Assembly: GCA_020854065.1 (NCBI GenBank)
Contig: JADZGF010000005.1
Coordinates: 8,925-72,924, forward strand
DNA from: Candidatus Nomurabacteria bacterium
GTDB taxonomy: Bacteria; Patescibacteriota; Minisyncoccia; Phycocordibacterales; SBAW01
DNA: 64,000 bases
Reading direction: 5' to 3'
A program made the translations under genes and the position numbers. A model generated the notes under the pieces. It made no database searches. It saw nothing but the letters and a program-made list of their open reading frames with translations, and was not told the origin of the DNA. Shown in pieces: positions 8,761-63,044 of this stretch (its first letter is position 1; every line of letters begins with the position of its first letter).

Positions 8761-8762
8761 GG

Positions 8763-10869: not shown

Positions 10870-11973
10870 ATGAGGTTCTTCAACTTCCTCAAATACAACA
10901 ACGCCGTACCGATCGGTCTTTTCTTGTTGTTTGGTATGGGAAGTGCTGCGCTGGCTTCTACCCCTGAGGTTCAGCAGGCGGTGTATAACACGCAAGAATC
11001 GGTGGTCAGTATCGACAACAGTTATATCGTCAATGCTGATATAGAAAATTTTGAGTATCAGCTCATGGTAACGGGCATAACCGAGGACGAAGAATTGTAT
11101 TACGTAACGTACACGTATCAGACGATTGATTTGCAACAAGAGGTTTGGCAAGAAGTTACAAAAGGAGGAACGCTTAAATTTACAAAAAAAGAATTAGAAG
11201 GTAGAGATCTTGGGCTTGAGGTAAGTAAGCAATTGGGCGAGCTTATCGCAAGCGAGATGAAGTATCTTGCCGACGTACAAAAGTATGAGCGTGCAAACGG
11301 CGAGTCCCGCAAAGTAGTTGCAACTGAGTACTCAGGACTCATCGGCCGTTTCTTCGATCCGACGCAAAAAGAATTCCCGGGGTATAAACCAGTAATTGAG
11401 CCACCGAAACCTGAAGAAGAGGAACAGACTGCTGCGGTAGCGAATGCGGTAACAGATCCTACACAACCTGTTCCTCCTGAGGAGAAGAAACCGAAAGAGA
11501 GCACGGTGTTAAGTCTCCAGGTGCTTGGCGAAAATCCGGTGCGCGTGGCGCTCGGCAGCGAATACCGCGACCTCGGCGCACTTTTAAGTGATCCAACTGA
11601 TCCATCAATAACCTACAAGGCGTTTGTAAACGGTGAGGAGAAAGTCGCTCCGATAACGGTGACCTCAAATGACGATGCGGTATTTGAAATTGAGTATCGT
11701 GCGGTTGATCAGAACGGCATAAAAGTATTTGTGCGTCGCATTGTGCTCTTCGGCGATGCTCCTGATCCAGGCACCGCAAAGACATTTGGAGGAAACCGCG
11801 ACCTACGACAGGAAGAACCACCTGCTGAAGAACCTCCAGCCGAAGAGCCACCGGCAGAGGAACCGCCCGCTGAAACTCCTCCTGCTGAAGAACCTCCCGC
11901 AGAGGAGCCACCTGCGGAAGAACCGCCTGTCGAAGAGTCGTCCACACCGCCTGCCGAAGAGCCGGCACAATAG
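10870..11973 (+). CDS. secreted protein with Ig-like (DUF5011-type) domain and C-terminal (P-A-E-E-P)n tandem repeats
   Basis: Signal peptide MRFFNFLKYNNAVPIGLFLLFGMGSAALAS. A segment LQVLGENPVRVALGSEYRDLGALLSDPTDPSITY resembles bacterial Ig-like surface domains. Eight or more EEPPA repeats precede the stop. Start chosen at ATG 10870; the upstream part of the ORF overlaps the convergent gene. Confidence 0.55.
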   Translation: MRFFNFLKYNNAVPIGLFLLFGMGSAALASTPEVQQAVYNTQESVVSIDNSYIVNADIENFEYQLMVTGITEDEELYYVTYTYQTIDLQQEVWQEVTKGGTLKFTKKELEGRDLGLEVSKQLGELIASEMKYLADVQKYERANGESRKVVATEYSGLIGRFFDPTQKEFPGYKPVIEPPKPEEEEQTAAVANAVTDPTQPVPPEEKKPKESTVLSLQVLGENPVRVALGSEYRDLGALLSDPTDPSITYKAFVNGEEKVAPITVTSNDDAVFEIEYRAVDQNGIKVFVRRIVLFGDAPDPGTAKTFGGNRDLRQEEPPAEEPPAEEPPAEEPPAETPPAEEPPAEEPPAEEPPVEESSTPPAEEPAQ

Positions 11974-11988
11974 CGGTATAGTTACACT

Positions 11989-14895
11989 ATGCGGCTTATG
12001 CCAAATCATCCGCCCCATGTTTTGCGCTACGCGGCGCTTCTAACGGGTGGAGTAATGCTCCTGGTTATGGTGGCGCTCGTAATGTCGGGTAATGTTCCCT
12101 TCGCTCCGAAATTCGTTAAAAATCTAGCAGGTACACTTGAAAGAAACCCAACCTCTCAGGCTGCGGGTATACCTTTTTATGCTGACCATTTTCCGATCTA
12201 CAATGGAGGCGACCCAAATCTGAGGCTGGTGAATGTTATCTTACCTGGTCACCCGGTACCCAATAACTGCGGACTTAATACCTGTGGAAATACAGGAAGC
12301 TGCAGCAATCCCTACATAGGACTCATTAGTATAAGCGATAGCTCCGGCACTAACGGACATGCCGCGCGCGTAAGATTCAACAATACTGTACAATACTTGC
12401 CGTCAACGGGTGTGTTTCAATCGCCATCCGGCAGTACTTTAACACTCAATTGGTCTTGTCAGGACAAGGTTATCAGGCATCAGCTTGACGCATATAATTG
12501 CAGTAACTATGTCGCCGATGGTGTCTGGTACTTCGACAGCGCTGTCGTAACGGGCCCTAGTGGCACCTTGTACAGCGGAACCAACAGGATCGGAAGCGTG
12601 CAAGTCCCTTTTAGTGGGAGTGTGGGCCAAACATTTAACTATACGTTGACGTGTCAAAGAAAAACCAACTCGTGGAGTGCCAGTGTTTCAGCTAGAATAA
12701 TGCCCCCTGCTCCTACTCTTAGTATTACGGGCCAAGTCGGTGCTTCTTCACCGGTAAGCGGTACGGTAAACATGACAGTGGGGCAGTCGGTGCTCATTAC
12801 AGGCACCTTTTCCGCTGCTTCAGGAGATTCCTTAACGGCCACTGCACTCAACGACTCTTCAAACAACGCGCTTCCTGGTGTGTCCAACACAACTAATACT
12901 TCACCAAAGACCTACACTTTTACTCCAACGACGGCGGGCACGTATGTTTTCTACCCAGCAGTTAGAACGACCTTGCATCCAACGTGGAATAATCATGGCA
13001 GTGCACTTACGGTACAAGTGGCCGCCGCTCCTTCAGGGTTCACCCTCACAGTCGACTCAAACGGCTCCTCAGGCGTTGCTATTGGCGGTACTTCAGGCTA
13101 CACCGGTACCACTAACTACACTAAGGTGGGTATCGCAAACGGGACGTCGGTTCAGCTTATCGCTCCTGCTACTACAGACACTGCCTACTTCTCTGGTTGG
13201 AACAACTGTAATTCAGGCAGTGGCACCACATGTACTGTCATCGTGAACTCCAGTAAGACGGTGACGGCAAACTTCGGCACTGGAGGTTACACACTCACCG
13301 TCAACACCTCCGGCGCGTCAGGGATATCCATAAGCGGTTCTCCGACACTTACTGGCGGTACTACTAACTACGTCCGCTCAGGTATTCCTGGCGGAAGTGT
13401 CATTGTCCTCACAGCACCTTCGACTTCGGGTACCGCCACCTTCTCCTCCTGGAGCGGCTGTACTTCGGCAAGTGGGGTCACATGCAACATTACAATGACG
13501 GGCGGGAATAAAACGGTAACGGCAAGCTATACCGCAACCGACCTTTGCCCATCTCTCAGCGGCACACAAACCTCATACCCATCAGGTTCGAGCCCGGCTA
13601 ACTCATGCACCTGTCCTAGTGGCTACACGTATAACAGTGTCTCCAACACGTGTGTTGCGCCGGCGACTGATCTCTGTCCATCACTTGCGGGAACACAAAC
13701 GTCATATCCGTCAGGTTCAAGTCCAGCAAACTCCTGCACCTGCCCCAGTGGGTATACGTACGACAGCGGTTCTAACGCTTGTGTTGCTCCGGACCTCTGC
13801 CCATCACTTGCAGGAACACAGACCTCATATCCATCAGGTTCAAGTCCAGTAAACTCCTGCACCTGCCCAAGTGGGTATACGTACAACAGTGGCTCCAACG
13901 CTTGTGTTGTCGCGAGCGACTCGTGTACGACCATGTATCCAAGTTATTACGGTCCTGTTGTTGTGACGGGTACTACTGCAGGGACTGTGTATGGTAGTGG
14001 TCCGTACCATTTTATCTCTACCACTGCCAAAGCGGCAGTACATGCTGGTATTATCTCTGTCGGACAGACTGCTACTATTATGCGCACAAGCGCTGGTACA
14101 GTAAGTTCTTTCACTGGCTCTACACAAAATGGAATCACTTCCTTTACGACTGGGTCCTCTGCGTGTGGTGTAACACTCTCTAACGCGGCGCCATCAATAC
14201 CTACCTTGACTCTTGCTTCGACGCAGAGTGCTGCCGAGGGTGGGTCAACGGGTATTTTTACTGTTACTGCAAACCAGACTTCAAGCAGCAATATTGCCGT
14301 TAACTACACTGTTACAGGCGGCACTGCCACCGAAGGTGTCGATTACACTTCGCTTTCGGGCTCAGTTACTCTTCCGGCGTACGAGACGAGCGTAACGATA
14401 CTGGTGAGTGCCATTAACGACACTGAGTACGAGGGTACTGAGACAATAGGATTGTCATTGGATTCTTCTTCCAGTTATGACCGTGGGAGTCCGTATACTG
14501 CGACCATGAACCTTATCGACAACGAAACAGCAGCTTCGCTCCCAACATTCTCCACCTGTGCAGACACCGGGACTCCTCCTACCTGCTCGTTGGCACTACT
14601 TTCAGGTCTTACTTCAGTTAATTGGATTAGACAGGGTCTTCCTGTAACTGTGTCCTGGAATGTAGACGGACTCGTCACTGGTTCTCCGGGTAATACTTGT
14701 ACGATACGATCAATTCCTTCTTCAGCATTCACCACGCGAAGCTGGCCACAGACCGGGAGTACGTGGGTGGGCACTGCAACGTCAAATAACATTATACAGA
14801 CTACGATCTTTACCCTCACCTGCACAGCGCCAAATGGTATAGAAACTACAACTGCACGAACGGTGCGCGTGGTGCCTCGCTTCAATGAGATCTAG
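11989..14895 (+). CDS. large multi-domain surface protein: N-terminal TM anchor, two InlB B-repeat-like domains, three Cys-rich roughly 40 aa repeats, Calx-beta-like domain
   Basis: TM helix at residues roughly 15-35. Two roughly 80 aa repeats of the form YTLTV..SG..G...SG......GT.NY.......G..V.L.A......F..W..C.SG..C....N..KTVTA.F (InlB B-repeat pattern). Three DLCPSLxGTQTSYPSGSSPxNSCTCPSGYTY(N/D)SxSNxCV repeats. A Calx-beta-like stretch VNYTVTGGTATEGVDYTSLSGSVTLPAYETSVTILVSAINDTEYEGTETIGLSL. Confidence 0.75.
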   Translation: MRLMPNHPPHVLRYAALLTGGVMLLVMVALVMSGNVPFAPKFVKNLAGTLERNPTSQAAGIPFYADHFPIYNGGDPNLRLVNVILPGHPVPNNCGLNTCGNTGSCSNPYIGLISISDSSGTNGHAARVRFNNTVQYLPSTGVFQSPSGSTLTLNWSCQDKVIRHQLDAYNCSNYVADGVWYFDSAVVTGPSGTLYSGTNRIGSVQVPFSGSVGQTFNYTLTCQRKTNSWSASVSARIMPPAPTLSITGQVGASSPVSGTVNMTVGQSVLITGTFSAASGDSLTATALNDSSNNALPGVSNTTNTSPKTYTFTPTTAGTYVFYPAVRTTLHPTWNNHGSALTVQVAAAPSGFTLTVDSNGSSGVAIGGTSGYTGTTNYTKVGIANGTSVQLIAPATTDTAYFSGWNNCNSGSGTTCTVIVNSSKTVTANFGTGGYTLTVNTSGASGISISGSPTLTGGTTNYVRSGIPGGSVIVLTAPSTSGTATFSSWSGCTSASGVTCNITMTGGNKTVTASYTATDLCPSLSGTQTSYPSGSSPANSCTCPSGYTYNSVSNTCVAPATDLCPSLAGTQTSYPSGSSPANSCTCPSGYTYDSGSNACVAPDLCPSLAGTQTSYPSGSSPVNSCTCPSGYTYNSGSNACVVASDSCTTMYPSYYGPVVVTGTTAGTVYGSGPYHFISTTAKAAVHAGIISVGQTATIMRTSAGTVSSFTGSTQNGITSFTTGSSACGVTLSNAAPSIPTLTLASTQSAAEGGSTGIFTVTANQTSSSNIAVNYTVTGGTATEGVDYTSLSGSVTLPAYETSVTILVSAINDTEYEGTETIGLSLDSSSSYDRGSPYTATMNLIDNETAASLPTFSTCADTGTPPTCSLALLSGLTSVNWIRQGLPVTVSWNVDGLVTGSPGNTCTIRSIPSSAFTTRSWPQTGSTWVGTATSNNIIQTTIFTLTCTAPNGIETTTARTVRVVPRFNEI

Positions 14896-14922
14896 GTAAA
14901 AATCATGCGCTAGAATAAGCGT

Positions 14923-15939
14923 ATGAGTGTTAAGGTTGCAATTAACGGCTTTGGACGTATCGGTCGCGCGTTCGTGCGCGCAGCGGTGCATGATCCGAAG
15001 ATCGAACTTGTTGCGATCAATGACCTGGGTGAGATTGATAATCTTGCGTATCTTCTTCAGTACGATTCGGTGTACCGGCGCTTTCCCGCACAAATTAAAG
15101 TAGAGGGTGGCGATCTGGTGATTGGCGCAAAGCCAGTTAAGTTTTTAAGCGTCAAAGATCCTGCACAATTGCCGTGGGGTCAGCTTGGTGTTGATGTAGT
15201 GATTGAATCAACAGGCGTGTTTGATAGTTTTGAAAAATCGCAGGCACATATAACAGCTGGCGCGAAGCGTGTGGTTATTACCGCTCCAGTTAAAGACGAG
15301 TTACAAAACGCCGCAACGGTGCTGGTCGGAGTGAATGAGGATAAGCTCCAAAATGTTACCGTTACTTCCAATGCGTCGTGCACCACCAACTCAGCATCTC
15401 CTCTGATTGCGATTCTTGATGAATCGATTGGGATTGAGAAGGCGTTACTTAACACCGTGCACGCATACACCGCAACACAGTCGTTAGTGGATGCGCCGGT
15501 TAAAGGGTCAGATAAACGACGTGGTCGTGCTGCAGCGCAAAACATTGTGCCCTCATCCACAGGCGCTGCAGTTGCGGTGACAAAAGCATATCCAAATCTT
15601 TCAGGACTTTTTGATGGTGTCTCGGTACGGGTACCTACAGTTTCTGGTTCGCTCGTTGATATTACGTTCGTCGCGAAACGTGCAACGACTGCTGAGGAAG
15701 TAAACGACATACTGCGCAAAGCAGCGCTCGAACCGCGCTGGCAGGGGATTTTTGCTGCAAGTGACGAGCCGCTTGTTTCTGGTGACATTATCGGCACTGA
15801 ACATGCATCAATTGCGGATCTTGAGATGACACGGGTGGTTGGAGGTACCCTCGTTAAGGTAATGGCGTGGTACGACAACGAAATGGGGTATGCGCATACA
15901 CTTCTTCGACACGTACAATTGCTCGGTGCGCATATATAA
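14923..15939 (+). CDS. gap: type I glyceraldehyde-3-phosphate dehydrogenase
   Basis: VAINGFGRIGR NAD-binding motif, catalytic ASCTTN, and full-length (338 aa) colinearity with GapA. Confidence 0.9.
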   Translation: MSVKVAINGFGRIGRAFVRAAVHDPKIELVAINDLGEIDNLAYLLQYDSVYRRFPAQIKVEGGDLVIGAKPVKFLSVKDPAQLPWGQLGVDVVIESTGVFDSFEKSQAHITAGAKRVVITAPVKDELQNAATVLVGVNEDKLQNVTVTSNASCTTNSASPLIAILDESIGIEKALLNTVHAYTATQSLVDAPVKGSDKRRGRAAAQNIVPSSTGAAVAVTKAYPNLSGLFDGVSVRVPTVSGSLVDITFVAKRATTAEEVNDILRKAALEPRWQGIFAASDEPLVSGDIIGTEHASIADLEMTRVVGGTLVKVMAWYDNEMGYAHTLLRHVQLLGAHI

Positions 15940-15946
15940 TAGAAGA

Positions 15947-16384
15947 GTGAAAATCTTCATTGCATCTGATCATGCAGGGTTTGAACTCAAAGAAACTCTT
16001 GGGCATTACTTGCGGATGAAAGGCCGCGAGGTGGAAGATCTTGGTCCTGCTGAATTTAATCCGGAGGACGACTATCCACATACCATTGCGCCGTTGGCTA
16101 AAAAAGTTGCAAAGACAAAAGGCGCCATGGGTATTGCGATTGGAGGTTCAGGACAAGGCGAGGCGATGGAATGTAATCGTGTGAAAGGAGTACGCGCTGC
16201 TGTCTTCTATGGTGGCTCCCATGAGATCCTTAAACTCTCACGCCAGCACAATAGCGCTAATGTACTCTCGCTTGGCGCGCGATTTCTTTCTCCAAAAGAA
16301 GCGATACAGGCAGTGGAGCTGTGGCTTTCAACTCCGTTTAGTCACGAAGAGCGCCATGCGCGCCGTATTAAAGAACTGGGATGA
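15947..16384 (+). CDS. rpiB: ribose-5-phosphate isomerase B (RpiB/LacAB family)
   Basis: KIFIASDHAGFELKE...GIAIGGSGQGEAMECNRVKGVRAA, which is RpiB family. A GTG start at 15947 is chosen just after the gap stop. The ORF track begins at 15890, overlapping gap. Confidence 0.8.
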   Translation: MKIFIASDHAGFELKETLGHYLRMKGREVEDLGPAEFNPEDDYPHTIAPLAKKVAKTKGAMGIAIGGSGQGEAMECNRVKGVRAAVFYGGSHEILKLSRQHNSANVLSLGARFLSPKEAIQAVELWLSTPFSHEERHARRIKELG

Positions 16385-17016
16385 TAAAAATAATTCCCGC
16401 CATTTTACCGAAGACGTTTGACGAACTCGTTTCGGGACTCGAGCGTTTAAGTAGTGTCTCAAATGAAATACAAATAGATTTGGTAGGAAGGAATGTGCTC
16501 AAGGATCAAGAGATGCCACACTGGCAGGAATTTGAGTTCGAAATTGATGTCATGCTTCCTGAGCCGCACACCGAATTGGATAGCATATTAGCACTTGGTC
16601 CTTCCCGTATTGTTATCCATGCAGCAAACCAGCACGCCAAAGAAGCGCTCACACAACTACAGAGTATGCGCGACGGAAATTACCCGACTCTTGTCGGTAT
16701 AGCGCTCTTACCCACCGCAGAGCCTGAGGTGCTTGATGAGTACGCAGGACTCTATGATTTCATACAAGTCATGGGTATTGATGAGGTTGGCGCACAAGGC
16801 AGGCCCTTTAATCCCAAAGCTATTGAGTTGGTCTCACGTCTCCGCGCGCTTCATCCTCAGGTACTTATACAGGTTGATGGTCATGCGGCTGGAAATGAAA
16901 AAGAGTTGGTTGCAGCGGGTGCTGAACGCTTAGTTATTGGCTCTGCAATATTGAATGCTGATAATCCAAAAGCAGCACTCCATGAAGCGCTCGCTCGTGC
17001 AAATGCCGGAGTATAA
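16381..17016 (+). CDS. ribulose-phosphate 3-epimerase-like TIM-barrel protein (divergent)
   Basis: The N-terminus KIIPAILPKTFDEL resembles the Rpe start (IAPSILSADF). The fold and length fit, and the context is pentose-phosphate. The canonical His/Asp metal-ligand motif (HxDxMDG) is not evident. Confidence 0.45.
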   Translation: MIKIIPAILPKTFDELVSGLERLSSVSNEIQIDLVGRNVLKDQEMPHWQEFEFEIDVMLPEPHTELDSILALGPSRIVIHAANQHAKEALTQLQSMRDGNYPTLVGIALLPTAEPEVLDEYAGLYDFIQVMGIDEVGAQGRPFNPKAIELVSRLRALHPQVLIQVDGHAAGNEKELVAAGAERLVIGSAILNADNPKAALHEALARANAGV

Positions 17017-17024
17017 TAGAGCAA

Positions 17025-17909
17025 ATGGCTCTGAGCGATACGCAGGTTAATAGCCTTGAACTGCGCGCGCGCGACATCCGCGCCACTATTATTGAGATGC
17101 TCACCGCTGCAGGCTCCGGGCACACCGCGGGACCTCTCGGCATGGCGGATATCTTTGCGGCGCTCTATTTTCACATCCTCTCGCACGATCCCGCACATCC
17201 TGAATGGGATTTGCGCGATCGTCTTATCCTCTCCAATGGCCACATCACGCCGGTACGCTATGCTGCGATGGCACATGCAGGCTATTTCCCCGTTGAAGAG
17301 TGTTTAACGCTTCGTAAGTTTGGGTCGCGTCTGCAAGGTCACCCGGAGCGTCAAAAGCTCCCTGGGGTAGAGACTACTTCAGGTCCTCTCGGTTCGGGAC
17401 TCGGTCAGGCTGCCGGATATGCATATGCGGCTCGGATGGACGGAAAGAAATTCCGCACCTTTTGTTTAATGAGCGACGGGGAACAAGATACCGGCAACAT
17501 CTGGGAGTCTGCGATGTTTGCGGGGAATAATCGACTGAGCAACCTCACCGCTATTATTGATCGCAACAATATTCAGATAAACGGAATGACGGAGAATGTT
17601 ATGCCACTTGAGAACATGCGTGCAAAATACGAAGCGTTTAACTGGCATGTACTTGAGATTGATGGACATAACATGCGTGCCATTGTTGATGCGTGTGATG
17701 AAGCAGCGGCAATTTATGAGCGTCCAACCGTAATCATTGCACACACCATCCCTGGCAGAGGAGTACGTGAAATAGAGTTTGACTATCGCTGGCATGGCGT
17801 GCCGCCGGGCAAAGGTCCAACTGACAAAGTTCCGGCAGACAAACAGGCAGAAGTGTTCTTAAAAGAACTCCGGACTTTGAAAGGCAAAATTCAAAGCGAA
17901 CATGAATAG
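17025..17909 (+). CDS. tktA: transketolase, N-terminal (TPP-binding) subunit
   Basis: GSGHTAGPLGMADIFAALYF......LSNGH matches the transketolase PP-domain motifs. 294 aa, typical of split Tkt. Confidence 0.9.
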   Translation: MALSDTQVNSLELRARDIRATIIEMLTAAGSGHTAGPLGMADIFAALYFHILSHDPAHPEWDLRDRLILSNGHITPVRYAAMAHAGYFPVEECLTLRKFGSRLQGHPERQKLPGVETTSGPLGSGLGQAAGYAYAARMDGKKFRTFCLMSDGEQDTGNIWESAMFAGNNRLSNLTAIIDRNNIQINGMTENVMPLENMRAKYEAFNWHVLEIDGHNMRAIVDACDEAAAIYERPTVIIAHTIPGRGVREIEFDYRWHGVPPGKGPTDKVPADKQAEVFLKELRTLKGKIQSEHE

Positions 17910-17916
17910 CTTTTTT

Positions 17917-18468
17917 ATGCGCAAATCGCGAGGTTTTACCCTTATCGAACTCCTGGTTGTTATTGCCATCATCGGCATACTTGCCTCTATTGTGATGGTT
18001 AGTCTCAATGGTGCGCGTGCTAAAGGGCGAGATGCTCGGCGACTTGCTGACTTGAAGTCATTTGAATTTGCACTCAATCTCTACTATGAGGCGAACGAAC
18101 ACTATCCATATACCAACTGCTCTGGCTCTAACAGCTGGGCCAGTTTTGACAGTCCTACCTATTCGCCCAATTTGGTATGTGATACGCCAGGTGGAGCAGG
18201 AGTTACGCTTTCACAAAAGATGAGCCCATACACCGATCCCTTAAAAGACCCGGGAGGTGCAACTGGTGATGCGGGTTATTTGTATATCAACCAAGGAGGA
18301 CGATTCGATTATTGCGTCTTGGTATGGCGCACCCCTGAAAACCTCAACAATTTCCCGCCTGAGACGATACCCGCATCTCAGTGCACTGCATGGAATAGTT
18401 CCGGAGTGTGCACCAGTGGCACTAATGCGTTGTATATAGGGAAAGGTATCTATCAAAACGGCTGTTAA
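17917..18468 (+). CDS. type IV pilin / pseudopilin (prepilin with class III signal peptide)
   Basis: MRKSRG|FTLIELLVVIAIIGILASIV: a short basic leader ending in Gly, Phe at +1, Glu at +5. A C-terminal Cys pair (CTAWNSSGVCTSG...NGC) is consistent with a disulfide-bonded D-region. The start overlaps the tktA stop by a few nt. Confidence 0.8.
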   Translation: MRKSRGFTLIELLVVIAIIGILASIVMVSLNGARAKGRDARRLADLKSFEFALNLYYEANEHYPYTNCSGSNSWASFDSPTYSPNLVCDTPGGAGVTLSQKMSPYTDPLKDPGGATGDAGYLYINQGGRFDYCVLVWRTPENLNNFPPETIPASQCTAWNSSGVCTSGTNALYIGKGIYQNGC

Positions 18469-18478
18469 TCTTGTATAT

Positions 18479-19462
18479 ATGCTCCACGCTACTTTTTCAC
18501 AAGATGTATTTGAGAAGCCCGATATGTCCGCAACACGTGATGGGTTTGGCAAGGCACTCTTAGAGCTGGGTGAGTCTAATAAAGATGTAGTGGTGGTCTG
18601 TGCCGACTTGGCTGAGAGTACGCGCGTATTAGCGTTTAAAGAAAAGTATCCTGAGCGGTATGTCGAAGCGGGTGTTGCCGAGCAAAATATGGCGACCGTA
18701 GCAAGTGGTCTCGCAAATTACGGAAAAGTCCCTTTTATTACTTCATATGCTGCATTTTCACCCGGGAGAAATAATGAGCAGATCCGTACCACTATTTCAC
18801 TCAATTATGTGCCGGTTAAAATTGTTGGTGCGCACGCTGGTATTTCAGTAGGACCTGACGGCGCAACACACCAAGCGCTTGAAGATATGGCGCTGATGCG
18901 TGTGCAGCCTAATATGTTGGTGCTTTCTCCATGTGATAGCGAAGAGGCGCGTAAAGCGACACTTGCTGCAGCAACGCATCCAGGACCCGTGTATATCCGT
19001 CTGACACGAGAAAAGTCTCCGGTCATGACTGCAACGGAAACTCCCTTTACACTCGGTGCCGCAAACGTGGCGTGGGAGAGCGACCATGCGCCTGAAGTGG
19101 TGGTGTTTGCGACTGGGCCTCTGCTCTACCATGCACTCCTTGCTGCGAAAGAGTTGGAACATGCGGTAGCAACGATGGTGGTGAATGTGCACACAATCAA
19201 ACCGCTTGATAGGGCAGTTATCGATTTTGCAAAACAAGCCGGGGCCGTCGTTACGGTGGAAGAACATCAGGTGGCTGGAGGGTTAGGAAGTGCAGTTGCT
19301 GAACTTTTGGCACAAGAGCATCCCGTACCAATTGAGTTTATCGGTGTGAAAGACCAGTTTGGGCAGTCCGGCGAGCCGTCTGAATTGTATGAGCACTACG
19401 GCATGGCGCCGAAGCACATTGTGGAGGCAATTAAAAAAGCAGAGAGTCGCAAAGTGAAGTAA
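18479..19462 (+). CDS. tktB: transketolase, C-terminal (Pyr + C-terminal domain) subunit
   Basis: YVEAGVAEQNMATVASGLA...GPDGATHQALEDMALMR are pyrimidine-binding-domain motifs of transketolase. Confidence 0.9.
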   Translation: MLHATFSQDVFEKPDMSATRDGFGKALLELGESNKDVVVVCADLAESTRVLAFKEKYPERYVEAGVAEQNMATVASGLANYGKVPFITSYAAFSPGRNNEQIRTTISLNYVPVKIVGAHAGISVGPDGATHQALEDMALMRVQPNMLVLSPCDSEEARKATLAAATHPGPVYIRLTREKSPVMTATETPFTLGAANVAWESDHAPEVVVFATGPLLYHALLAAKELEHAVATMVVNVHTIKPLDRAVIDFAKQAGAVVTVEEHQVAGGLGSAVAELLAQEHPVPIEFIGVKDQFGQSGEPSELYEHYGMAPKHIVEAIKKAESRKVK

Positions 19463-19467
19463 ACACT

Positions 19468-20001
19468 ATGCTGCATACGACGCATCGGTTTATAAAAAGG
19501 AGATTTGCAAAGCTCGGCATCGAGGGAGGCGTCATGGCGATATGCGCACTCATTCTCTTTAGTGGCGTTGTATATAAATACGGTGAGTACTCACAGAGTC
19601 TGCAGTGTTTAACGCATCTTTTGTATGTCGAAGCACGGGGCATGGATGAACAAGCGCAGTATGATGTGGCGCACTCGGTGATGAATCGTGTCGAAGCAAA
19701 CCGTCCGTATTTTGGTGGCAACACGGTGTGCGGTGTGGTGTATTACGTGCAAGATGGTGTACGTCAGTATTCGGGAGTGTCCCGTAACTTTGGTATGCCG
19801 GAGGATATGGAATCCTGGAAACGGTCAATGGCAATTGCGAGTGATGTGTTGACTGGCAGGGTGGAGCCTGTTGGCGCAATGCGGGATGCGCTCTATTATC
19901 TCAATCCTAAATATTCAAGCTCACGAAGTATTGTGTGGTTCAGAGCAAATCTCCGTGAGGTGGGATCCTCCGGTGCCCATATTTTTTACACTGACAGATA
20001 A
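19468..20001 (+). CDS. cell wall hydrolase, SleB/CwlJ (Hydrolase_2) family
   Basis: LYVEARGMDEQAQYDVAHSVMNRV matches the Hydrolase_2 core (AEARGE....VA.VILNRV). Confidence 0.55.
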   Translation: MLHTTHRFIKRRFAKLGIEGGVMAICALILFSGVVYKYGEYSQSLQCLTHLLYVEARGMDEQAQYDVAHSVMNRVEANRPYFGGNTVCGVVYYVQDGVRQYSGVSRNFGMPEDMESWKRSMAIASDVLTGRVEPVGAMRDALYYLNPKYSSSRSIVWFRANLREVGSSGAHIFYTDR

Positions 20002-20004
20002 AGG

Positions 20005-20994
20005 TTAGAGCGACTCGACGCTCCACGGTGCTGGGGGATTTGCTAAATTCTTTTCCAATTGCTCGCGCGTAAGGAGTCCTTTTTGTGCACCAATACCCTG
20101 CAAGACCGATGATGCGTTAACTGAGCCCCAACGCAACGCTTCTTCAAGTGTCTTCCCGAGGCTTAATGCAACCGTGGTGGTTGAGGCGAGTGCGTCTCCT
20201 GCGCCCGTTACCTCATACGGCTGCTTTGGATCGGGATAGCGGGGAAGATGAAACATTGCTCCTTGTTCGTCTCGTGCGTAGCATCCGTTGGTGCCGTCGG
20301 TAATGACGACGGTCTTGGGACCGAGTGCGTGCATAGCGTCAAGGAGCTGTTTAAATTCTTGTCCTGCGGGTAATCCTAAAATACGTTCAGCCTCCTCTTT
20401 GTTGCAGAAAAATAGATCGCTTCTTTTATACACCTCTGCAAGTGCTTCTTTACCCATCTTCATCTGGTATGTCCCCGGCTGGAAGGCGAGTTTCGTGTCT
20501 GGATACTTCTCAAGCATCTGCATCAAAGCGCGGTGATAGGGAAGCGAGGAGTCTCCGAGCGAGGAGAGATAGAGCCATTGTGGTTTCTCGCGCAAAGAGG
20601 GCACGGCATAATCGAACGTTTCGTGCTTAACCAATATAGTGCGTTGCGATTCATACCACAGTACGTAGTGGTAGTTGGTAAATTTGCCTGGCTGCGTTTC
20701 CATATACGCAACATCGACGCCTTCACGGCGCAACACTTCAATACATTGTGCACCGTATGCATCTTTGCCGACATATGCACGCAACCCTGAAGACACCCCA
20801 AGACGTGCTGCAGAAACTGCGGCATTTGCAGCGTTTCCCACTGCAGGCACGATCTCGTGGAGCTCATACGGGATCTTATCTCCCCACTTCATAGAGATCT
20901 CGCAATCTTCGTTATCAAGTCGGCAATGCACCCTCGCATCTTTAAGTCTGATAAAGGCGTCAGTCACTATGTCACCAACTGCAAAGAAGTTCAT
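20005..20994 (-). CDS. PfkB-family carbohydrate kinase (ribokinase/phosphofructokinase-B-like)
   Basis: A Gly-rich N-terminal motif and the C-terminal anion-hole motif EVTGAGDAL (DTxGAGD). 329 aa. Confidence 0.75.
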   Translation of the reverse strand: MNFFAVGDIVTDAFIRLKDARVHCRLDNEDCEISMKWGDKIPYELHEIVPAVGNAANAAVSAARLGVSSGLRAYVGKDAYGAQCIEVLRREGVDVAYMETQPGKFTNYHYVLWYESQRTILVKHETFDYAVPSLREKPQWLYLSSLGDSSLPYHRALMQMLEKYPDTKLAFQPGTYQMKMGKEALAEVYKRSDLFFCNKEEAERILGLPAGQEFKQLLDAMHALGPKTVVITDGTNGCYARDEQGAMFHLPRYPDPKQPYEVTGAGDALASTTTVALSLGKTLEEALRWGSVNASSVLQGIGAQKGLLTREQLEKNLANPPAPWSVESL

Positions 20995-21020
20995 GTTGTT
21001 TTCTATTATATAGTAAGTAC

Positions 21021-21887
21021 ATGAAGCCTCTCCGCGAGGTGCTCAAGGAGTACAGAAATGCCACCAAGGCGTTGGCGCATTTTAACTTCTCCGATTCTAA
21101 TCAACTCAAAGCAATTGCTGAGGCGAGTAAAGAAACAGGATTACCGGTACTCGCAGCGCTCTCGGAAGGTGAACGTGAGCATTTTCCTCTGGTGCATGCG
21201 CGCGCATTGATTGATGCGTACCAGCGTGAAGGGGTGCAGATGTACTTAAGTGCTGATCACACGTATTCACTTGAAAAAGCGAAAGCGGCTATTAATGCAG
21301 GAGTAGATGCGATTGTGGTTGATGGGGCAGAACTTAGTTTTGCCGACAATGAAAAGTTGCTTATGCAAGTCGTTGCATACGCGCACAGCAAAAAGCGCTT
21401 CCGCGGATACCACGACACCATTATTGAAGGAGAGTTGGGGTATATTGGTAAATCTTCGTCTTTACACGATTCACTCCCGGAGGGGGTGAGTGAAGCAAAC
21501 CTCACTACGCCCGAGGATGCGGCACGTTTGGTTAAAGAAACAGGTATCGATGCGCTTGCGCCAGCGGTGGGGAATGTACACGGCATGTTGAAGAATGCAA
21601 AAGAGCCACGATTGCACCCGGATCGGATGAAAGAGATTGCAAAAGCGGCGGGGGTTCCACTCGTATTGCATGGTGCTTCCGGAAACAGCGAAGAGGACAT
21701 TAAGGCTTGTATTGCGGTAGGTGTCTCAATTGTTCATATCAATACCGAGCTCCGGGTGCTCTATCGAGATTCACTCCGTGATTCACTAAAAGGAGAGGAA
21801 ACAACGCCGTATAAGTTTTTGACCCCGGCAGTCGATGCTATGCGCGAGTACCTTATCCACAGGGTGCGGTTATGTGCAGGTCTCTAG
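21021..21887 (+). CDS. fba: class II fructose-bisphosphate aldolase family protein
   Basis: EGELG, AIGNVHGM-like AVGNVHGM and LVLHGASG motifs of class II FBA/tagatose-bisphosphate aldolase. Confidence 0.8.
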   Translation: MKPLREVLKEYRNATKALAHFNFSDSNQLKAIAEASKETGLPVLAALSEGEREHFPLVHARALIDAYQREGVQMYLSADHTYSLEKAKAAINAGVDAIVVDGAELSFADNEKLLMQVVAYAHSKKRFRGYHDTIIEGELGYIGKSSSLHDSLPEGVSEANLTTPEDAARLVKETGIDALAPAVGNVHGMLKNAKEPRLHPDRMKEIAKAAGVPLVLHGASGNSEEDIKACIAVGVSIVHINTELRVLYRDSLRDSLKGEETTPYKFLTPAVDAMREYLIHRVRLCAGL

Positions 21888-21963
21888 CTATATACTTAAG
21901 CGAGTTACGGAGACGCTCTACGCATATCTGAATTTTTAAAAATTATAAACTGAGCTGCTTTTT

Positions 21964-22344
21964 ATGAATACATTTAACGGGATACTTATTGGGCTCATTG
22001 TAGCCATCGTCGCTTCGGCAGGTTCTTTTTATCTTGGGTACAGCATTAACCCCGCTGTTCTCGGGCCTTATATAGCACCAAATGCGGTAGAAGGTTTACC
22101 TGAGGGAGTTGTCCAGATTCTTGGTACGGTTGAATCTCAAGAAGCTGGAAATCTTACGGTCCGCCTCAATACCGGCGAGCAGCGCACAGTCATGCTTAAC
22201 GAAGATACTTCAGTGGTTGTAAGTGTCCTCGCGGCAGACCTCTCCGTTCTTATCCCAGGGACGGAAGTTTTGATCTCTGCATTTGAGCAGCAAGACGGCT
22301 CTCTGCAGACGGAATACATTACGGTAGTACCTCAAGACGAGTAA
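21964..22344 (+). CDS. small N-terminally anchored membrane protein
   Basis: TM helix ILIGLIVAIVASAGSFYLGY. The stop lies 3 nt before the start of the large surface protein, so probably co-transcribed. Confidence 0.4.
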   Translation: MNTFNGILIGLIVAIVASAGSFYLGYSINPAVLGPYIAPNAVEGLPEGVVQILGTVESQEAGNLTVRLNTGEQRTVMLNEDTSVVVSVLAADLSVLIPGTEVLISAFEQQDGSLQTEYITVVPQDE

Positions 22345-22346
22345 CA

Positions 22347-24587
22347 ATGGAGTTTTTTCCAAAACATAAGGGTCGTTTTATCGGCGCAAGCGTTGCTGCG
22401 GTGTATCTTCTTTTAATCGGTGCCGCATTTATCGGGAATGATTCATTGGCGCAGTTTGCGAACGTCTCTCCCGGTAGTCAGACAGCACTGTCGATCTGCG
22501 ACATTCCTGGTGTGGGTTGTGGAGATGGCATTATCTACACGAACGACCTGAAGGTAACCATAGTTTCTTGGGCACTCCCGCCATATGGTGGGAGTGGAGA
22601 ATTGTATGTAAAGACCCATGGTTATACGTCTTATACGGGGGTTAACGCGCTTTGTGTGTATAAAAATCTCACGACAGGCGTCGGGAGGACCGCGAAGAGT
22701 GGTGCTAAAGGAGAGGCTAGAATTAAAGATTTCGGTCCAATTAATGGCACTACACAAGTAAAGATTACCTGCACCAACTACTACGCTACGTACTCCTCTT
22801 CCGATTCGACCAAAATAACCCTTAAAAATGCGCCAGACATTACGTTCCAGGCGGACCCAACAGAGCTTACCTACAGCGGCGCTCCAGTCACGAGTAACAT
22901 TACGTGGAAGGTAGGGAACGATTACAAATGTCGACTGACGGGTCCTGGTGTTTCTATAAGTAAGACAGAGGCGGAGTGCCAAAATAGTACGGTAACTGCT
23001 GTGCCGTTTAGTAGCCCAGGTTCTTATACGTACGATCTTGAGTATGTTCCATATTCTGACAAAGACGGAAATGATGTATGGGCTACAATCCAGAGTGTAA
23101 CAGTTGATGTCTTGCCACCGGCCGACCTCTGTCCATCGCTTGCAGGTACACAGACCTCATATCCATCAGGTTCAAGTCCTGCAAACTCCTGCACCTGCCC
23201 CAGTGGGTATACGTACGACAGCGGTTCTAACGCTTGTGTTGCTCTGGACCTCTGCCCATCACTTGCAGGTACACAGACTTCGTATCCTTCTGGTTCGAGT
23301 CCTACAAACTCTTGTACGTGCCCCTCAACTTCGACCTACAACAGCTCAACGAATAGCTGTGCAGCCGCCACTGACCTTTGCCCGTCCCTCGGGGGCACAC
23401 AAACCTCATATCCATCAGGTTCAAGTCCTGCAAACTCTTGTACGTGCCCCGCGACATATACCTACAATAGTGGTACCAACAGATGCACAGCTCCTGTTGC
23501 CGCTGATCTCTGTCCATCACTTGCAGGCACACAGACTTCGTATCCTTCTGGTTCGAACCCACCTAATTCATGCACATGCCCTGGAGACTATATCAGCGCC
23601 ACTAATAGATGCATGGCTCCTGTAACGGGAACGCCAACGTTGAACATTACAGGCAACGGGCAGCAAAATACAGTAACTGTCACTCCAGGGACGCCGGTTA
23701 CTGTTGTTGGAACTTTTGTGGCTGCTTCCGGTGACTCTTTGGTAGCTACAGCTCTTAATGACAACGCAAGTAATCCACTTCCTGGCGTGCCAAACAGCAC
23801 TGCAACATCGCCTAAGACATATGTCTTTACGCCAACAGCAGTCGGTAGTTACGTATTTTATCCAGCGGCGAGGACTTCGGCATATCCATCATGGAACAAT
23901 TACGGCAAAGCGTTGGTCGTAAACGTAATACCTGCTAGCGTCTTTACCTGCACAGGCGCTGTTCCTTCAAACGCCACACTTTGTACTGCAGATGATACTG
24001 GTTTGACTTCCAATACCGCACGAACACTCACTTCTTCCTGCAGCATACCTAGGGGGAGTGCGCCAAAATGCCAATACACGTGCCAGTCGGGCTACACCAT
24101 ACAAGGCAGCACGTGTGAGCCAAACGCTACATGCTCAGGGGCACATCAGCTCGGTACGCCACCTAACTGCACCTGTGAAGTTGGATACATCATGCAGTAT
24201 GGAAGTTGTGTTGCTGTAGCTTGCCCGGGTGCGCATGAGGTTAACTATCCGGCATGTACCTGTGGGTCCGGCTACACTCGTGATGCCGGAAGTGGTCAAT
24301 GTGTTATGCAACCAGCGCTTGAGCTTCAAGTAAACGGAGCAGATGCAGCTCGGGTTCGTGCGGGGAGTGGGGTAGAGATTATATGGAATGCAACTGGAGT
24401 TCAGGCTGGATCCTGCACCGTACGCACTTCGGCTGGTACGACAATCTCAAGTGGAGTCAACAGCGGTTCTAGTGAGTACACTGTTGCGGGGCAGACAATC
24501 TTCCGCCTCAGCTGCCTTAATGATGCTGGTGGGGTAGTAACGGATGAAGCGGTCGTCAATATCATCCCTACCTTTATAGAGTCCTAG
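22347..24587 (+). CDS. large surface protein, paralog of 11989..14895 (TM anchor, four Cys-rich roughly 40 aa repeats, shared Ig-like domain, C-terminal Cys-rich modules)
   Basis: N-terminal TM helix. Four DLCPSL(A/G)GTQTSYPSGS.P.NSCTCP repeats. The domain TPGTPVTVVGTFVAASGDSLVATALNDNASNPLPGV...YVFYPAARTS is homologous to TVGQSVLITGTFSAASGDSLTATALNDSSNNALPGV...YVFYPAVRTT in the 968 aa protein. Confidence 0.75.
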   Translation: MEFFPKHKGRFIGASVAAVYLLLIGAAFIGNDSLAQFANVSPGSQTALSICDIPGVGCGDGIIYTNDLKVTIVSWALPPYGGSGELYVKTHGYTSYTGVNALCVYKNLTTGVGRTAKSGAKGEARIKDFGPINGTTQVKITCTNYYATYSSSDSTKITLKNAPDITFQADPTELTYSGAPVTSNITWKVGNDYKCRLTGPGVSISKTEAECQNSTVTAVPFSSPGSYTYDLEYVPYSDKDGNDVWATIQSVTVDVLPPADLCPSLAGTQTSYPSGSSPANSCTCPSGYTYDSGSNACVALDLCPSLAGTQTSYPSGSSPTNSCTCPSTSTYNSSTNSCAAATDLCPSLGGTQTSYPSGSSPANSCTCPATYTYNSGTNRCTAPVAADLCPSLAGTQTSYPSGSNPPNSCTCPGDYISATNRCMAPVTGTPTLNITGNGQQNTVTVTPGTPVTVVGTFVAASGDSLVATALNDNASNPLPGVPNSTATSPKTYVFTPTAVGSYVFYPAARTSAYPSWNNYGKALVVNVIPASVFTCTGAVPSNATLCTADDTGLTSNTARTLTSSCSIPRGSAPKCQYTCQSGYTIQGSTCEPNATCSGAHQLGTPPNCTCEVGYIMQYGSCVAVACPGAHEVNYPACTCGSGYTRDAGSGQCVMQPALELQVNGADAARVRAGSGVEIIWNATGVQAGSCTVRTSAGTTISSGVNSGSSEYTVAGQTIFRLSCLNDAGGVVTDEAVVNIIPTFIES

Positions 24588-24642
24588 CGGTCAGGTCCTC
24601 TAGCTTGCCGCGTATAGGTTTTTCTGTTACAGTACCTCCGTT

Positions 24643-25293
24643 ATGGAGTTGACCGTCAATAAGCGCGAAACTACGCAAAATCCTAATACCCTACGCCGCG
24701 AGGGCTTCTTGCCTGCGGTTATCTATGGTTGTGCCGCAGAGTCCACTCCGGTTACGATCGACCGCAAGACCTTCCAGAAAGTCTATAAGGCTGCAGGCGA
24801 GTCGAGCGTTATCACCATTAAGGGCCTTGGTGAGGATAAAGACGCCCTTATCCACGATGTACAGCACGATGCAGTAACGGGTGAGCCGTTGCATGCAGAT
24901 TTTTATGCAATTCAGAAGGGTCAAACGGTGACGGTCTCCGTACCACTCGAGTTCGATGGTGTCGCTCCTGCAGTGAAGGATCTTGGTGGTATTTTGACCA
25001 AAGTCATGCACGAGCTTGAAATCACGGTACAACCGAAAGATCTCCCACATGCTATTCATGTAGACATTTCTGCATTGAAGACCCTTGAAGATCAGATTAA
25101 GGTCTCTGACCTTAAACTTCCGGCATCTGCTGAGATATCTGCTGATCCTGAGGAGGTTGTTGCAATGGTATCGACTGCAACGGAAGAGCCTGCGGAGCCT
25201 GCAGCACCAATTGATCTCTCGGCAATCGCTATCTCCGAAGAGCGCGGCAAGAAGGAGGAAGAAGCTCCTGCTGAAGGCGAAACAAAAGAGTAA
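24643..25293 (+). CDS. rplY: 50S ribosomal protein L25 / general stress protein Ctc
   Basis: RREGFLPAVIYG....PVTID and HADFY..Q...V.V.VPLEF match the L25/Ctc signatures. An acidic C-terminal tail is typical of the Ctc form. Confidence 0.8.
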   Translation: MELTVNKRETTQNPNTLRREGFLPAVIYGCAAESTPVTIDRKTFQKVYKAAGESSVITIKGLGEDKDALIHDVQHDAVTGEPLHADFYAIQKGQTVTVSVPLEFDGVAPAVKDLGGILTKVMHELEITVQPKDLPHAIHVDISALKTLEDQIKVSDLKLPASAEISADPEEVVAMVSTATEEPAEPAAPIDLSAIAISEERGKKEEEAPAEGETKE

Positions 25294-25298
25294 CAAAA

Positions 25299-25325
25299 GC
25301 GACCCTGAAAGGGGTCGTTTTAGGT
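25299..25325 (+). terminator. putative rho-independent terminator after rplY
   Basis: GCGACCC-TGAAA-GGGGTCG hairpin followed by TTTTAGG. Confidence 0.45.
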
Positions 25326-25378
25326 CTTCATAAGTAATTTTTGAGAGTCTCTTGCGTCTGTTAAGATATAAAGAACGC

Positions 25379-26719
25379 ATGAGTTTTAAGCTCTCCATAG
25401 GGGCTCTGTTCCTCTTCCTGGCACTCTCAGGTGCCGCTATGGCGCAGACCCTCTCTCCGGAGGAACGCGCAAAACTCCAAGCTGAATACGACCAACTGCA
25501 AGAGGAAATAGTAAAGTGGCAGAAAGTGCTCGACGAGACGCGAGCAAAGAAGAACACCATTCAAGGAGATGTGTCTGCCCTTGATGCACAGATTAAGAAG
25601 GCGCAGGCTGAGATTAATCAACGTAATAATACTATTTCGCGGCTCTCTTCTGAGATTCGCCAAAAATCAGCACGCATCTCTACATTAGAAGAGCGCCTTG
25701 ATCGGGGGAAAGAGTCTTTGGCAAAACTTCTGCGTGAAAAATACCAGAGTGATCAACAGTCGCTTGCGGTATTAGCACTCTCAGCACAAGACCTTTCTGA
25801 TTTCTATGCCACCGTCGACTCTATCGACATTATCGACCGCGAGTTGCAATCCCTTTTTGATGAGCTCCGTGGCGTTAAACAGCAGACTGAGGAAGAGAAG
25901 GCGGCATTAGCCGAGCGCCAGGATAAAGAGTTTGATGCGCGCTATGAGGTGGAGGTAAAAAAGAAGGAGATAGCAACGGACCAGGCACAAAAGAAGGAAT
26001 TGCTCGCCGTCACCGCAAGCGAAGAGAGATCATACAGCCAGGTGCTGGCGGATAGGCAGCGTAGAGCTGAGGAAATCCGTAGCGCACTCTTCGAGTTGCG
26101 TGACACGCAAGGTATTTCCTTTGAGACCGCACTTGCGTACGCACAAGAGGCTTCCGGCAAAACAGGAGTACGTGCTGCCTTTATTCTCGGCATTCTGCGC
26201 CAAGAGTCTAACTTGGGTAAAAACGTAGGGCAGTGTCTCTTAACCGATGCTACAACCGGGGCTGGCAAGGGTAAAAATACCGGTACACCATTTGCTCGGG
26301 TAATGCGTGCGGATGAGGTACGTAACGACGCTGCAGTCTTCCTCAACTTAATGCAAAAACTTGGTCGCGATCCGTACTCGACCCCGGTGTCCTGTCCTAT
26401 TGCAGGAGTGGGGTATGGCGGCGCTATGGGACCGTCCCAATTTATCCCCACCACCTGGGTTGGGCTTGAGAGCCGCATCAGCTCCCTCGTCGGTGTATCG
26501 ACTCCTGATCCGTGGAGCCCGAAACACGCCATTCATGCAACCGCTCTTTTCTTAGCAGATCTCGGTGCGGGCAGGGGTACGCCAAGCGCCGAGCGCGAGG
26601 CTGCAGGCCGATACTATGCGGGAGGCAATTGGGCTACCTTGGGGCTTGGGTATGCCAATTCGGTCTTAGGTTTTGCCGCCGAATACCAGGCAAATATCGA
26701 CTTCTTGAACGACTTGTAA
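25379..26719 (+). CDS. secreted coiled-coil protein fused to an MltB-like lytic transglycosylase domain
   Basis: Signal peptide [23 protein letters not shown] roughly 230 aa coiled-coil (heptad-rich, Q/E/K/R). C-terminal motifs ILRQESNLG and [13 protein letters not shown] match the lytic murein transglycosylase B family (ESxxG ... GAMGQxQFMPST). Confidence 0.6.
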
Positions 26720-26741
26720 TCGTGTGTTACACTGCTCACAC

Positions 26742-26954
26742 ATGAAAAAGGAGACCCATCCGACATATTTTGCCAAAGCCACCGTTGCGTGCGTATGCGG
26801 GGCGTCTTTTCCGGTGGGTTCGACCAAAGAAAAACTGGAGGTTGAGATCTGCTCGAGCTGCCATCCGTTCTATACGGGGAATGAGAAGATCCTCGATGCC
26901 GCTGGTCGTGTCGAGAAGTTTAAGGCTCGTCGCGCTGCAGCAAAGAAGAAATAA
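26742..26954 (+). CDS. rpmE: 50S ribosomal protein L31 (Zn-ribbon type)
   Basis: [10 protein letters not shown]...VACVCG...[12 protein letters not shown]. Confidence 0.8.
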
Positions 26955-26996
26955 CTACGCTACACTGAGAGCGTAGAAGAAGTAAGTCGAAAGGGC

Positions 26997-56195: not shown

Positions 56196-63044
<6,849 letters not shown>

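Follow-up and report, generated by a model that had tools for sequence, protein, structure and literature searches.

Two genes in a 64,000-nt stretch of the genome of a Candidatus Nomurabacteria bacterium (contig JADZGF010000005.1, positions 8,925 to 72,924; hereafter the window) encode putative surface proteins, PA and PB, each of which contains a tandem array of a small cysteine-rich unit. A recent, non-reciprocal transfer of DNA between these two genes, suggested in an initial annotation of the sequence, is well supported by an excess of codon-level identity, by a sharp breakpoint relative to an outgroup genome, and by conserved synteny of the flanks. The overall explanation, which we regard as probable, is that PA and PB are old paralogues, that the unit is a disulfide-stapled spacer, that the arrays recombine, and that a short patch was copied from PA to PB. 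The genes and their arrays are as follows:

11989–14895 (+): PA, putative surface protein of 968 amino acids (aa), defined by its open reading frame (ORF), Pfam matches and domain comparisons
22347–24587 (+): PB, putative surface protein of 746 aa, defined by its ORF; 100% identical to the NCBI entry 'hypothetical protein IT396_01475 [Candidatus Nomurabacteria bacterium]'
13540–13662, 13669–13791 and 13792–13914 (+): units A1, A2 and A3 of the PA array, three 41-aa units with four cysteines each, from repeat analysis
23124–23246, 23247–23369, 23373–23495 and 23505–23618 (+): units B1, B2, B3 and B4 of the PB array; B4 has a 3-aa deletion

The two ORFs and the numbers of tandem units, three in PA and four in PB, agree with the initial annotation; its description of the proteins as 'giant' is an overstatement at these lengths. 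Over the seven units, 26 of the 41 columns are invariant, including the four cysteines at alignment columns 5, 25, 27 and 40. The sequence CTCPSGYTYDSGSNAC is read in six of the seven, B4 being shortened. PA and PB are 9.3 kb apart, with a block of central-metabolism genes between them, and no third ORF of the window contains the unit or the domains that the two proteins share.

The longest exact match between the two genes is 64 nt (13726–13789 in PA, 23181–23244 in PB); the next longest is 32 nt, and the best DNA alignment shows 89.5% identity over 200 nt. The 61-nt string that had been quoted as an example of identity beyond 60 nt is indeed present at both loci, at 13729 and 23184. Units A2 and B1 are identical at 39 of 39 residues, yet 8 of the 117 nucleotides of the unit core differ between them. 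As a measure of DNA identity beyond protein conservation, we used the fraction of conserved residues that are encoded by the same codon. This fraction is 0.79 for A2/B1, 0.78 for A3/B1 and 0.73 for A2/A3, compared with 0.29–0.59 for the remaining unit pairs, 0.39 for the shared Ig-like domain and 0.37 for the C-terminal domain. Unit pairs outside A2, A3 and B1 have 63–80% DNA identity, with synonymous sites near saturation. Thus, the near-identity of repeat DNA claimed at the outset holds for A2, A3 and B1 and fails for the other pairs, and homogenisation is restricted to these three units. The low codon identity of the Ig-like domain indicates that its sharing between PA and PB is old.

Similarity of this kind might also be maintained without any transfer, if identical protein combined with a strong preference for certain codons, or selection acting on the sequence of the mRNA or of the DNA, kept the units alike. 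The complete protein identity of A2 and B1 would fit such an explanation, as would the stretch encoding NSCTCP, which is conserved in DNA across all units. To assess this, 200,000 back-translations of the B1 protein were generated from the codon usage of the window. The simulation predicts 12.5 identical codons between A2 and B1, against 31 of 39 observed, and longest in-register matches with a mean of 10 nt and a maximum of 36 nt, against 64 nt observed; none of the 200,000 draws reached the observed values. Protein identity is thus insufficient to account for the DNA identity, as had been argued. Other unit pairs with 31–35 identical residues share only 29–59% of their codons, and the orthologous unit of a close relative differs in its 3' half and linker length. 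Codon bias as the cause is rejected by the simulation together with the outgroup comparison described below, and we consider maintenance without transfer highly improbable.

The outgroup is contig L001 (GCA_964459415.1), which carries P0002, a PB homologue with 87% identity, and is collinear with window positions 20642–27205 at 89.5% DNA identity over 6.6 kb. Units at the same position in PB and in this relative (R units) are 82% (B1/R1), 79% (B2/R2) and 81% (B3/R3) identical, where about 90% would be expected under vertical descent, indicating that the arrays were not simply inherited vertically. Higher identities are found off position (B3/R1 89%, B2/R3 85%), R1 shares 99% identity with R2, and the lengths of the linkers between units differ between the two genomes. 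A three-way map of the sites at which PA differs from the relative shows that PB is of the relative's type up to 23180 and of the PA type from 23189 to at least 23244. These breakpoints define the following stretches:

23181–23269 at most, 23189–23244 at least (+): putative converted patch in PB, from the map of informative sites and the unit identity matrix
13726–13814 (+): candidate donor stretch in PA, from the 3' part of A2 across the linker to the 5' part of A3; matches PB 23181–23269 with 1 mismatch in 89 nt

All three PA units have the 3' half 'PSGYTY(D/N)SGSNAC' followed by a short linker, and the 'GYTYNS' form is also present in a distant PA-like protein (P0034). The orthologous unit in the relative has 'ATYTYNSGTN' in its 3' half. 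The occurrence of PA-type 'GYTYNS' units in A1–A3 and in P0034 makes PA the likely donor. A patch of 81–89 nt would accordingly have been copied non-reciprocally from PA to PB. It would have overwritten the 3' part of the first PB unit with sequence from the 3' part of A2 and the linker, and perhaps from the beginning of A3 as well. Units A2 and A3 would also have been homogenised within PA, and the arrays in general would evolve through homologous recombination between units.

The position of the two genes is conserved in relatives. L003, L005 and L008 each have a gene for a surface protein upstream of a block made up of GAPDH, RpiB, Rpe, TktN, TktC and a hydrolase. FBA, a PB homologue, L25 and SLT come next in L003 and L005; the L008 contig stops short of them. 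The L005 gene at the PA position encodes 500 aa and lacks units; its similarity to PA covers the part with the Calx-beta and C-terminal domains. This conserved gene order indicates that PA and PB are old positional paralogues between which only a patch has moved. The two genes have different flanks, which are syntenic with relatives from independent assemblies, and the similarity is limited to about 200 nt. An assembly duplication or mis-join is thus rejected, and PA and PB are two separate genes, as had been supposed.

A subtler artefact would be the mis-placement, during assembly or polishing, of reads from A2 and A3 of PA onto B1 of PB. The source may be a metagenome-assembled genome (MAG), repeats are prone to such errors, and a patch of 81–89 nt is shorter than a typical read. 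Mis-joining would not account for the conserved synteny on both sides of both genes, and the patch requires two switches rather than one. Moreover, A2 and B1 retain 8 differences, the patch itself contains one mismatch, and similar mosaicism is seen in two independent assemblies, between R1 and R2 in L001 and in the recombinant units of L008 (see below). We regard an artefact of this type as unlikely.

Unit mosaicism is most evident in L008. At positions 5356–6192 of this contig, two types of 5' half and two types of 3' half occur in the four units of P0011, in each of the four possible pairings. The half-units are joined at the NSCTCP-coding stretch AACTCCTGCACTTGCCC, where the left breakpoint in PB also lies. 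The same region of L008 also holds a 255-nt tandem duplication with 95% identity. The L008 mosaic shows that the shuffling of half-units is also able to generate new combinations. The transfer seen in the window homogenises PA and PB rather than diversifying them.

The possibility that variation is programmed, with the two arrays serving as reciprocal donor cassettes and half-unit shuffling selected as a means of varying the surface that a host cell, phages or grazers encounter, was considered in this context. Besides the P0011 combinations, it would be consistent with the different composition and order of units in genomes that are 89.5% identical, and with the faster evolution of the N-terminal ectodomain of PB (residues 36–165), which is 76% identical in protein to the relative with a ratio of nonsynonymous to synonymous substitution rates (dN/dS) of 0.29. 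Neighbouring genes (FBA, the 126-aa gene upstream of PB, and L25) are 92–98% identical in protein, with dN/dS of 0.04–0.11, and the C-terminal domain of PB (residues 653–746) is 100% identical, with dN = 0. However, dN/dS does not exceed 1 in any region compared between the two close genomes, and each of the two PB orthologues has four units. Only two arrays are present in the 64 kb, each within a complete gene with its own start codon and anchor, and neither is a silent cassette; a cassette-type antigenic variation system would have one expression site and multiple truncated, silent donors. No invertase, diversity-generating retroelement or dedicated recombinase is seen adjoining PA or PB, and the single transfer in the window has made the two genes more alike. 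The lack of silent cassettes and of a dedicated recombinase nearby argues against programmed antigenic variation, which we consider unlikely.

The unit itself matches no Pfam-A or NCBIfam model at threshold. When 1.84 billion representative proteins were searched exhaustively with the unit profile, 88 matched with E≤1e-3, and about 10 of these cover the whole unit in one stretch; the rest are confined to columns 1–17 or 24–40. The matches to the first half are tandem repeats of about 30 aa with two cysteines, 'DxCPN[IL]xGxQxxVPxGxxxxxxGxC', found in pseudopilin-like, VWA/DUF11, SdrD-B and other surface or secreted proteins (P0015, P0016, P0036, P0042). This two-Cys repeat likewise has no Pfam-A or NCBIfam model. 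Alignment of 31 four-Cys units with 33 two-Cys units using hhalign gave a probability of 97.2% (E = 4.6e-11) over columns 1–20. Both types are extracellular and tandemly arranged, and they have in common the invariant residues D3, C5, G10, Q12, P16 and G18 together with their spacing over the first 20 columns. They differ in the residue after Cys-Pro, which is Ser in the units of the window and Asn in the two-Cys repeat as well as in variant units of relatives. The first loop of the window's units is closed by a cysteine after 20 residues ('NSC'), versus about 22 in the two-Cys repeat, and is then followed by a second, EGF-like cysteine pair, giving 41 aa with four cysteines.

This second half of the unit, CxCPxGYxYxxxxNxC, corresponds to an EGF-like hairpin. 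The Pfam family cEGF (PF12662) is the best match for all units, with scores below its gathering threshold of 26.6 bits (24.2 for PA, 14.6 for PB and 17.1 for the isolated PB array), and the CBM14 model picks up the hairpin where it is repeated on its own (P0018, P0039). The pattern CxCxxGYx8C fits CxCxx[GP][FYW]x(4,8)C, the EGF C-terminal signature (PROSITE PS01186). An AlphaFold 2 (AF2) model of the unit, based on the 31-unit alignment, has a predicted local distance difference test score (pLDDT) of 89.4 and contains one hairpin (residues 32–34/39–41). The top non-significant Foldseek matches of the unit are EGF modules (factor Xa, LRP6, fibrillin), the cysteine-rich, furin-like region of the insulin receptor, and the CBM14 domain of chitotriosidase; these alignments cover only the hairpin (17–24 residues, root-mean-square deviation 0.8–2 Å). 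The likeness to EGF and cEGF is thus at the level of the hairpin. EGF-like domains have six cysteines (1–3, 2–4 and 5–6 disulfides) instead of four, their sequence has no counterpart to the first half of the unit, the cEGF score of 24.2 bits falls short of 26.6, and structural matches have E≥0.66.

Several other searches were negative. A word-indexed search with the three-unit array of PA returned nothing, not even the PB units, probably owing to a filter or composition effect, as the exhaustive search recovered 88 representatives. A metagenome scan with a degenerate DNA pattern of the unit had no match, neither the unit profile nor PB had a significant match in sequence searches of the PDB, and literature searches on cysteine-rich surface proteins of the candidate phyla radiation (CPR) and on the motif as a text string found nothing relevant.

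The pattern of cysteine loss suggests how the disulfides are formed. In a degenerate unit of P0034, Cys1 and Cys2 are retained and Cys3 and Cys4 have disappeared as a pair, and the two-Cys relatives keep the first pair only; Cys1–Cys2 and Cys3–Cys4 are thus the likely pairs. A disulfide-knotted fold, which the initial annotation had proposed as a possibility, is rejected, as the unit has four cysteines, a cystine knot or knottin needs at least three disulfides, and the cysteines are lost in sequential pairs. The unit would then be a disulfide-stapled module, consisting of a D-x-C-P-x-L-x-G-x-Q-x3-P-x-G loop closed by Cys1–Cys2 and a CxCxxGYx8C beta-hairpin closed by Cys3–Cys4. Sequence comparison identifies it as an uncurated four-Cys variant in which a widespread, itself uncurated repeat is fused to an EGF-like hairpin. 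Its description as an unrecognised family is thus correct with respect to Pfam-A and NCBIfam, and incorrect in that the first half is homologous to the two-Cys repeat and the second is EGF-like. A six-copy four-Cys version precedes a subtilase domain in P0088, an unrelated protein, and so the composite unit is not confined to the clade of PA and PB.

The use of the unit in relatives provides clues to its role. The PB family includes P0003 to P0010 and P0021 and loci L002, L003, L005 and L006, several of them from MAGs labelled 'Candidatus Saccharibacteria'. These relatives have one to three units, placed singly at the borders of Ig-like domains, as is seen in P0004 to P0009 and P0021; most relatives have one unit between such domains. 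EGF modules are typically used in tandem as rigid spacers. Given this placement, the small stapled fold and the analogy to EGF, the unit is most likely a stiff spacer or stalk element. Amplification to three and four tandem copies in this genome would then form a longer stalk.

Several observations weigh against the explanation as a whole. The PA orthologue of the relative with 89.5% identity was not found, and the direction of copying is read from the 'GYTYNS' units; a GTDB scan with PA found no close relative. The patch is known from assembled sequence, probably a metagenome assembly, as the close relatives are MAGs. A Foldseek search of the unit against the PDB found no significant match (best E = 0.66), and the AF2 model of full-length PB is of low confidence, with an overall pLDDT of 54.

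The remaining domains of PA follow the order: transmembrane anchor, N-terminal region, Ig-like domain of the TALND type, two InlB-B-repeat-like domains, three Cys units, LCCL domain, Calx-beta domain and family C-terminal domain. The individual features outside the arrays are:

12031–12087 (+): N-terminal hydrophobic segment of PA, residues 15–33, predicted signal anchor or signal peptide; the sole such segment in PA, with a Kyte-Doolittle 19-residue maximum of 2.35
12682–13050 (+): Ig-like 'TALND' domain of PA, in common with PB, from sequence comparison
13039–13533 (+): two InlB B-repeat-like domains of about 82 aa, PA residues 351–515, from homology to P0104 residues 29–200
13978–14157 (+): LCCL domain, PA residues 664–723; Pfam PF03815, E = 1.8e-7, 31.7 bits versus a cut-off of 22.6
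14245–14523 (+): Calx-beta domain, PA residues 753–845; Pfam PF03160, E = 5.9e-13, 49.3 bits versus a gathering threshold of 27
14596–14892 (+): family C-terminal beta domain of PA, ending ...VVPRFNEI-COOH, from alignment to the PB C-terminus and from the terminal motif of all family members
22377–22433 (+): N-terminal hydrophobic segment of PB, residues 11–29; single segment with a Kyte-Doolittle maximum of 2.37; AF2 helix at residues 8–28
23595–23954 (+): Ig-like 'TALND' domain of PB, residues 417–536, kept across the PB family; from alignment and low-confidence AF2 beta strands
23955–24302 (+): C-terminal Cys-rich region of PB with extra CxCxxGY...C EGF-like hairpins; invariant Cys, Gly and Tyr columns and weak EGF-family Pfam matches
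24303–24584 (+): family C-terminal beta-sandwich domain of PB, ending ...IIPTFIES-COOH; AF2 pLDDT 85–91, protein identical to the relative

The N-terminal transmembrane anchors, the Ig-like domain shared by the two proteins and the Calx-beta domain of PA were all anticipated in the initial annotation, which did not include the LCCL domain. The shared Ig-like domain has no match to any Pfam family; it is 56% identical in protein between PA and PB (E = 2e-29), with DNA identity of 57.4% in a codon alignment and 64% by blastn. The Calx-beta domain also has a PDB sequence match to the calcium-binding domain of NCX1. The two InlB B-repeat-like domains that had been proposed are recovered by homology and not by a direct scan. 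Residues 351–515 of PA are 49% identical to residues 29–200 of P0104 (E = 2e-30), a segment that falls within PF18998 in a protein scoring this family at E = 2.7e-34 in 5 stretches, and many other matches also carry PF18998; a direct Pfam scan of PA residues 349–516 alone finds no family at E≤5, PF18998 included. The total number of cysteines is even in both proteins, 28 in PA and 38 in PB.

Apart from the N-terminal helix, the full-length PB model is all-beta, with the C-terminal domain the best-defined part, and resembles the strings of Ig and FN3 domains in adhesins and in S-layer proteins (GhpA, SbsB, SiiE). PA and PB would be cell-surface proteins of a CPR (Patescibacteria) bacterium, ultra-small and uncultured. 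Each would be held in the membrane by a single anchor at its N-terminus, continue with a series of all-beta extracellular domains and end in a C-terminal domain specific to the family. From the domain content, we infer surface exposure of both proteins, and a role in adhesion or contact with a partner cell is conceivable. The resemblance to modular adhesins and S-layer proteins lies in the all-beta Ig-like strings and, in PA, the Calx-beta domain. PA and PB differ from these proteins in having an N-terminal transmembrane anchor in place of signals for type I secretion, sortase or SLH attachment, and in a C-terminal domain that ends in [IV]Px(F/V/L)xEx-COOH and belongs to no curated family.

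This C-terminal beta domain of about 95 aa terminates all family members (also P0002–P0012 and L003–L006), with the last residues [IV]-P-x-[FVLY]-x-E-x-COOH, and has no Pfam family match. A function in sorting, attachment or binding is possible. At positions 90–10855 of L004, a 754-kb contig of a 'Candidatus Saccharibacteria' MAG, four consecutive genes encode proteins with this C-terminal motif (..PEYQEI, ..PEVEEL, ..PEYQEL and ..PEVIEQ); together they form a local cluster of paralogous surface proteins. A more far-reaching proposal would combine the unit, the TALND Ig-like domain and the C-terminal domain into a surface-display and adhesion system specific to a CPR clade, in which half-unit exchange is selected to re-tune stalk length and epitopes for host-cell contact, and the C-terminal domain is a new sorting or attachment signal. 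We consider this improbable.

The recombination of the arrays has parallels elsewhere. Concerted evolution and gene conversion among the repeats of surface proteins occur in the tandem-repeat adhesins of Gram-positive cocci and in paralogous outer-surface gene families. The short non-reciprocal patch, the homogenisation within a gene and the turnover of units among close relatives are features in common with these systems. What differs here is the CPR host, the location of the genes 9.3 kb apart across a metabolism block, and the exchange of half-units at NSCTCP.

Immediately upstream of both genes are further genes for putative membrane or secreted proteins:

10870–11973 (+): gene of a secreted or transmembrane protein whose C-terminus carries a (PAEEP)n repeat; 15 nt separate its end from PA; from ORF, repeat and hydrophobicity scans
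21964–22344 (+): gene of a 126-aa transmembrane protein, ending 2 nt upstream of PB; in the same place in the relative (L001 1326–1706)

The product of the first of these genes has a weak bacterial Ig-like match, and its acidic tail contains about 8 P-A-E-E-P repeats, with a 15-nt period, at 11812–11937. A scan for promoters and terminators found fewer sites than in shuffled sequence. The database counterpart of PB, IT396_01475, sits on a 92-kb contig. PA has no self-match in a collection of 5.8 billion proteins, unlike PB of the same NCBI contig; the public annotation may not have called the gene, or may have called it in another form or marked it as a pseudogene. Further upstream of PA, the minus-strand region 5936–10792 contains ORFs of 464 aa and 212 aa without Pfam match, a weak TPR match and a weak match to glycosyltransferase family 9; these may be cell-envelope glycosylation genes beside the surface-protein locus.

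Further features were noted in other genes of the window. The two halves of a split transketolase (17025–17909 and 18479–19462), in the metabolism block, are separated by a 188-aa type IV pilin-like gene (17902–18468, +) with an N-terminal methylation motif (E = 1.5e-10); no gene is present at that place in L003, L005 or L008. A 370-aa ORF at 40078–41190 (+) contains 24-nt and 45-nt tandem repeats at 40216–40422 and has no Pfam match. A single 2282-aa ORF at 56196–63044 (+) has the full set of RpoB domains (residues 20–1048) followed by the full set of RpoC domains (1067–2162); the beta and beta' subunits of RNA polymerase are thus fused in one gene.

CPR bacteria are regarded as organisms that live attached to other cells, and their surface proteins are, to our knowledge, almost entirely unannotated. 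The evolution of the repeats described here is fairly ordinary and reveals no new mechanism, and the finding is in that sense a modest one; the module is new to curated databases. PA and PB provide a coordinate-level example of how a CPR surface protein may be built, with Ig-like domains separated by small disulfide-stapled spacers, and of how it may change, through short patches of gene conversion and the shuffling of half-units at a junction that is conserved in the middle of the unit. Two families without a model, the DxCPNxxGxQ repeat with its four-Cys variant and the family C-terminal domain, merit Pfam entries, and models of both would improve the annotation of many surface proteins.

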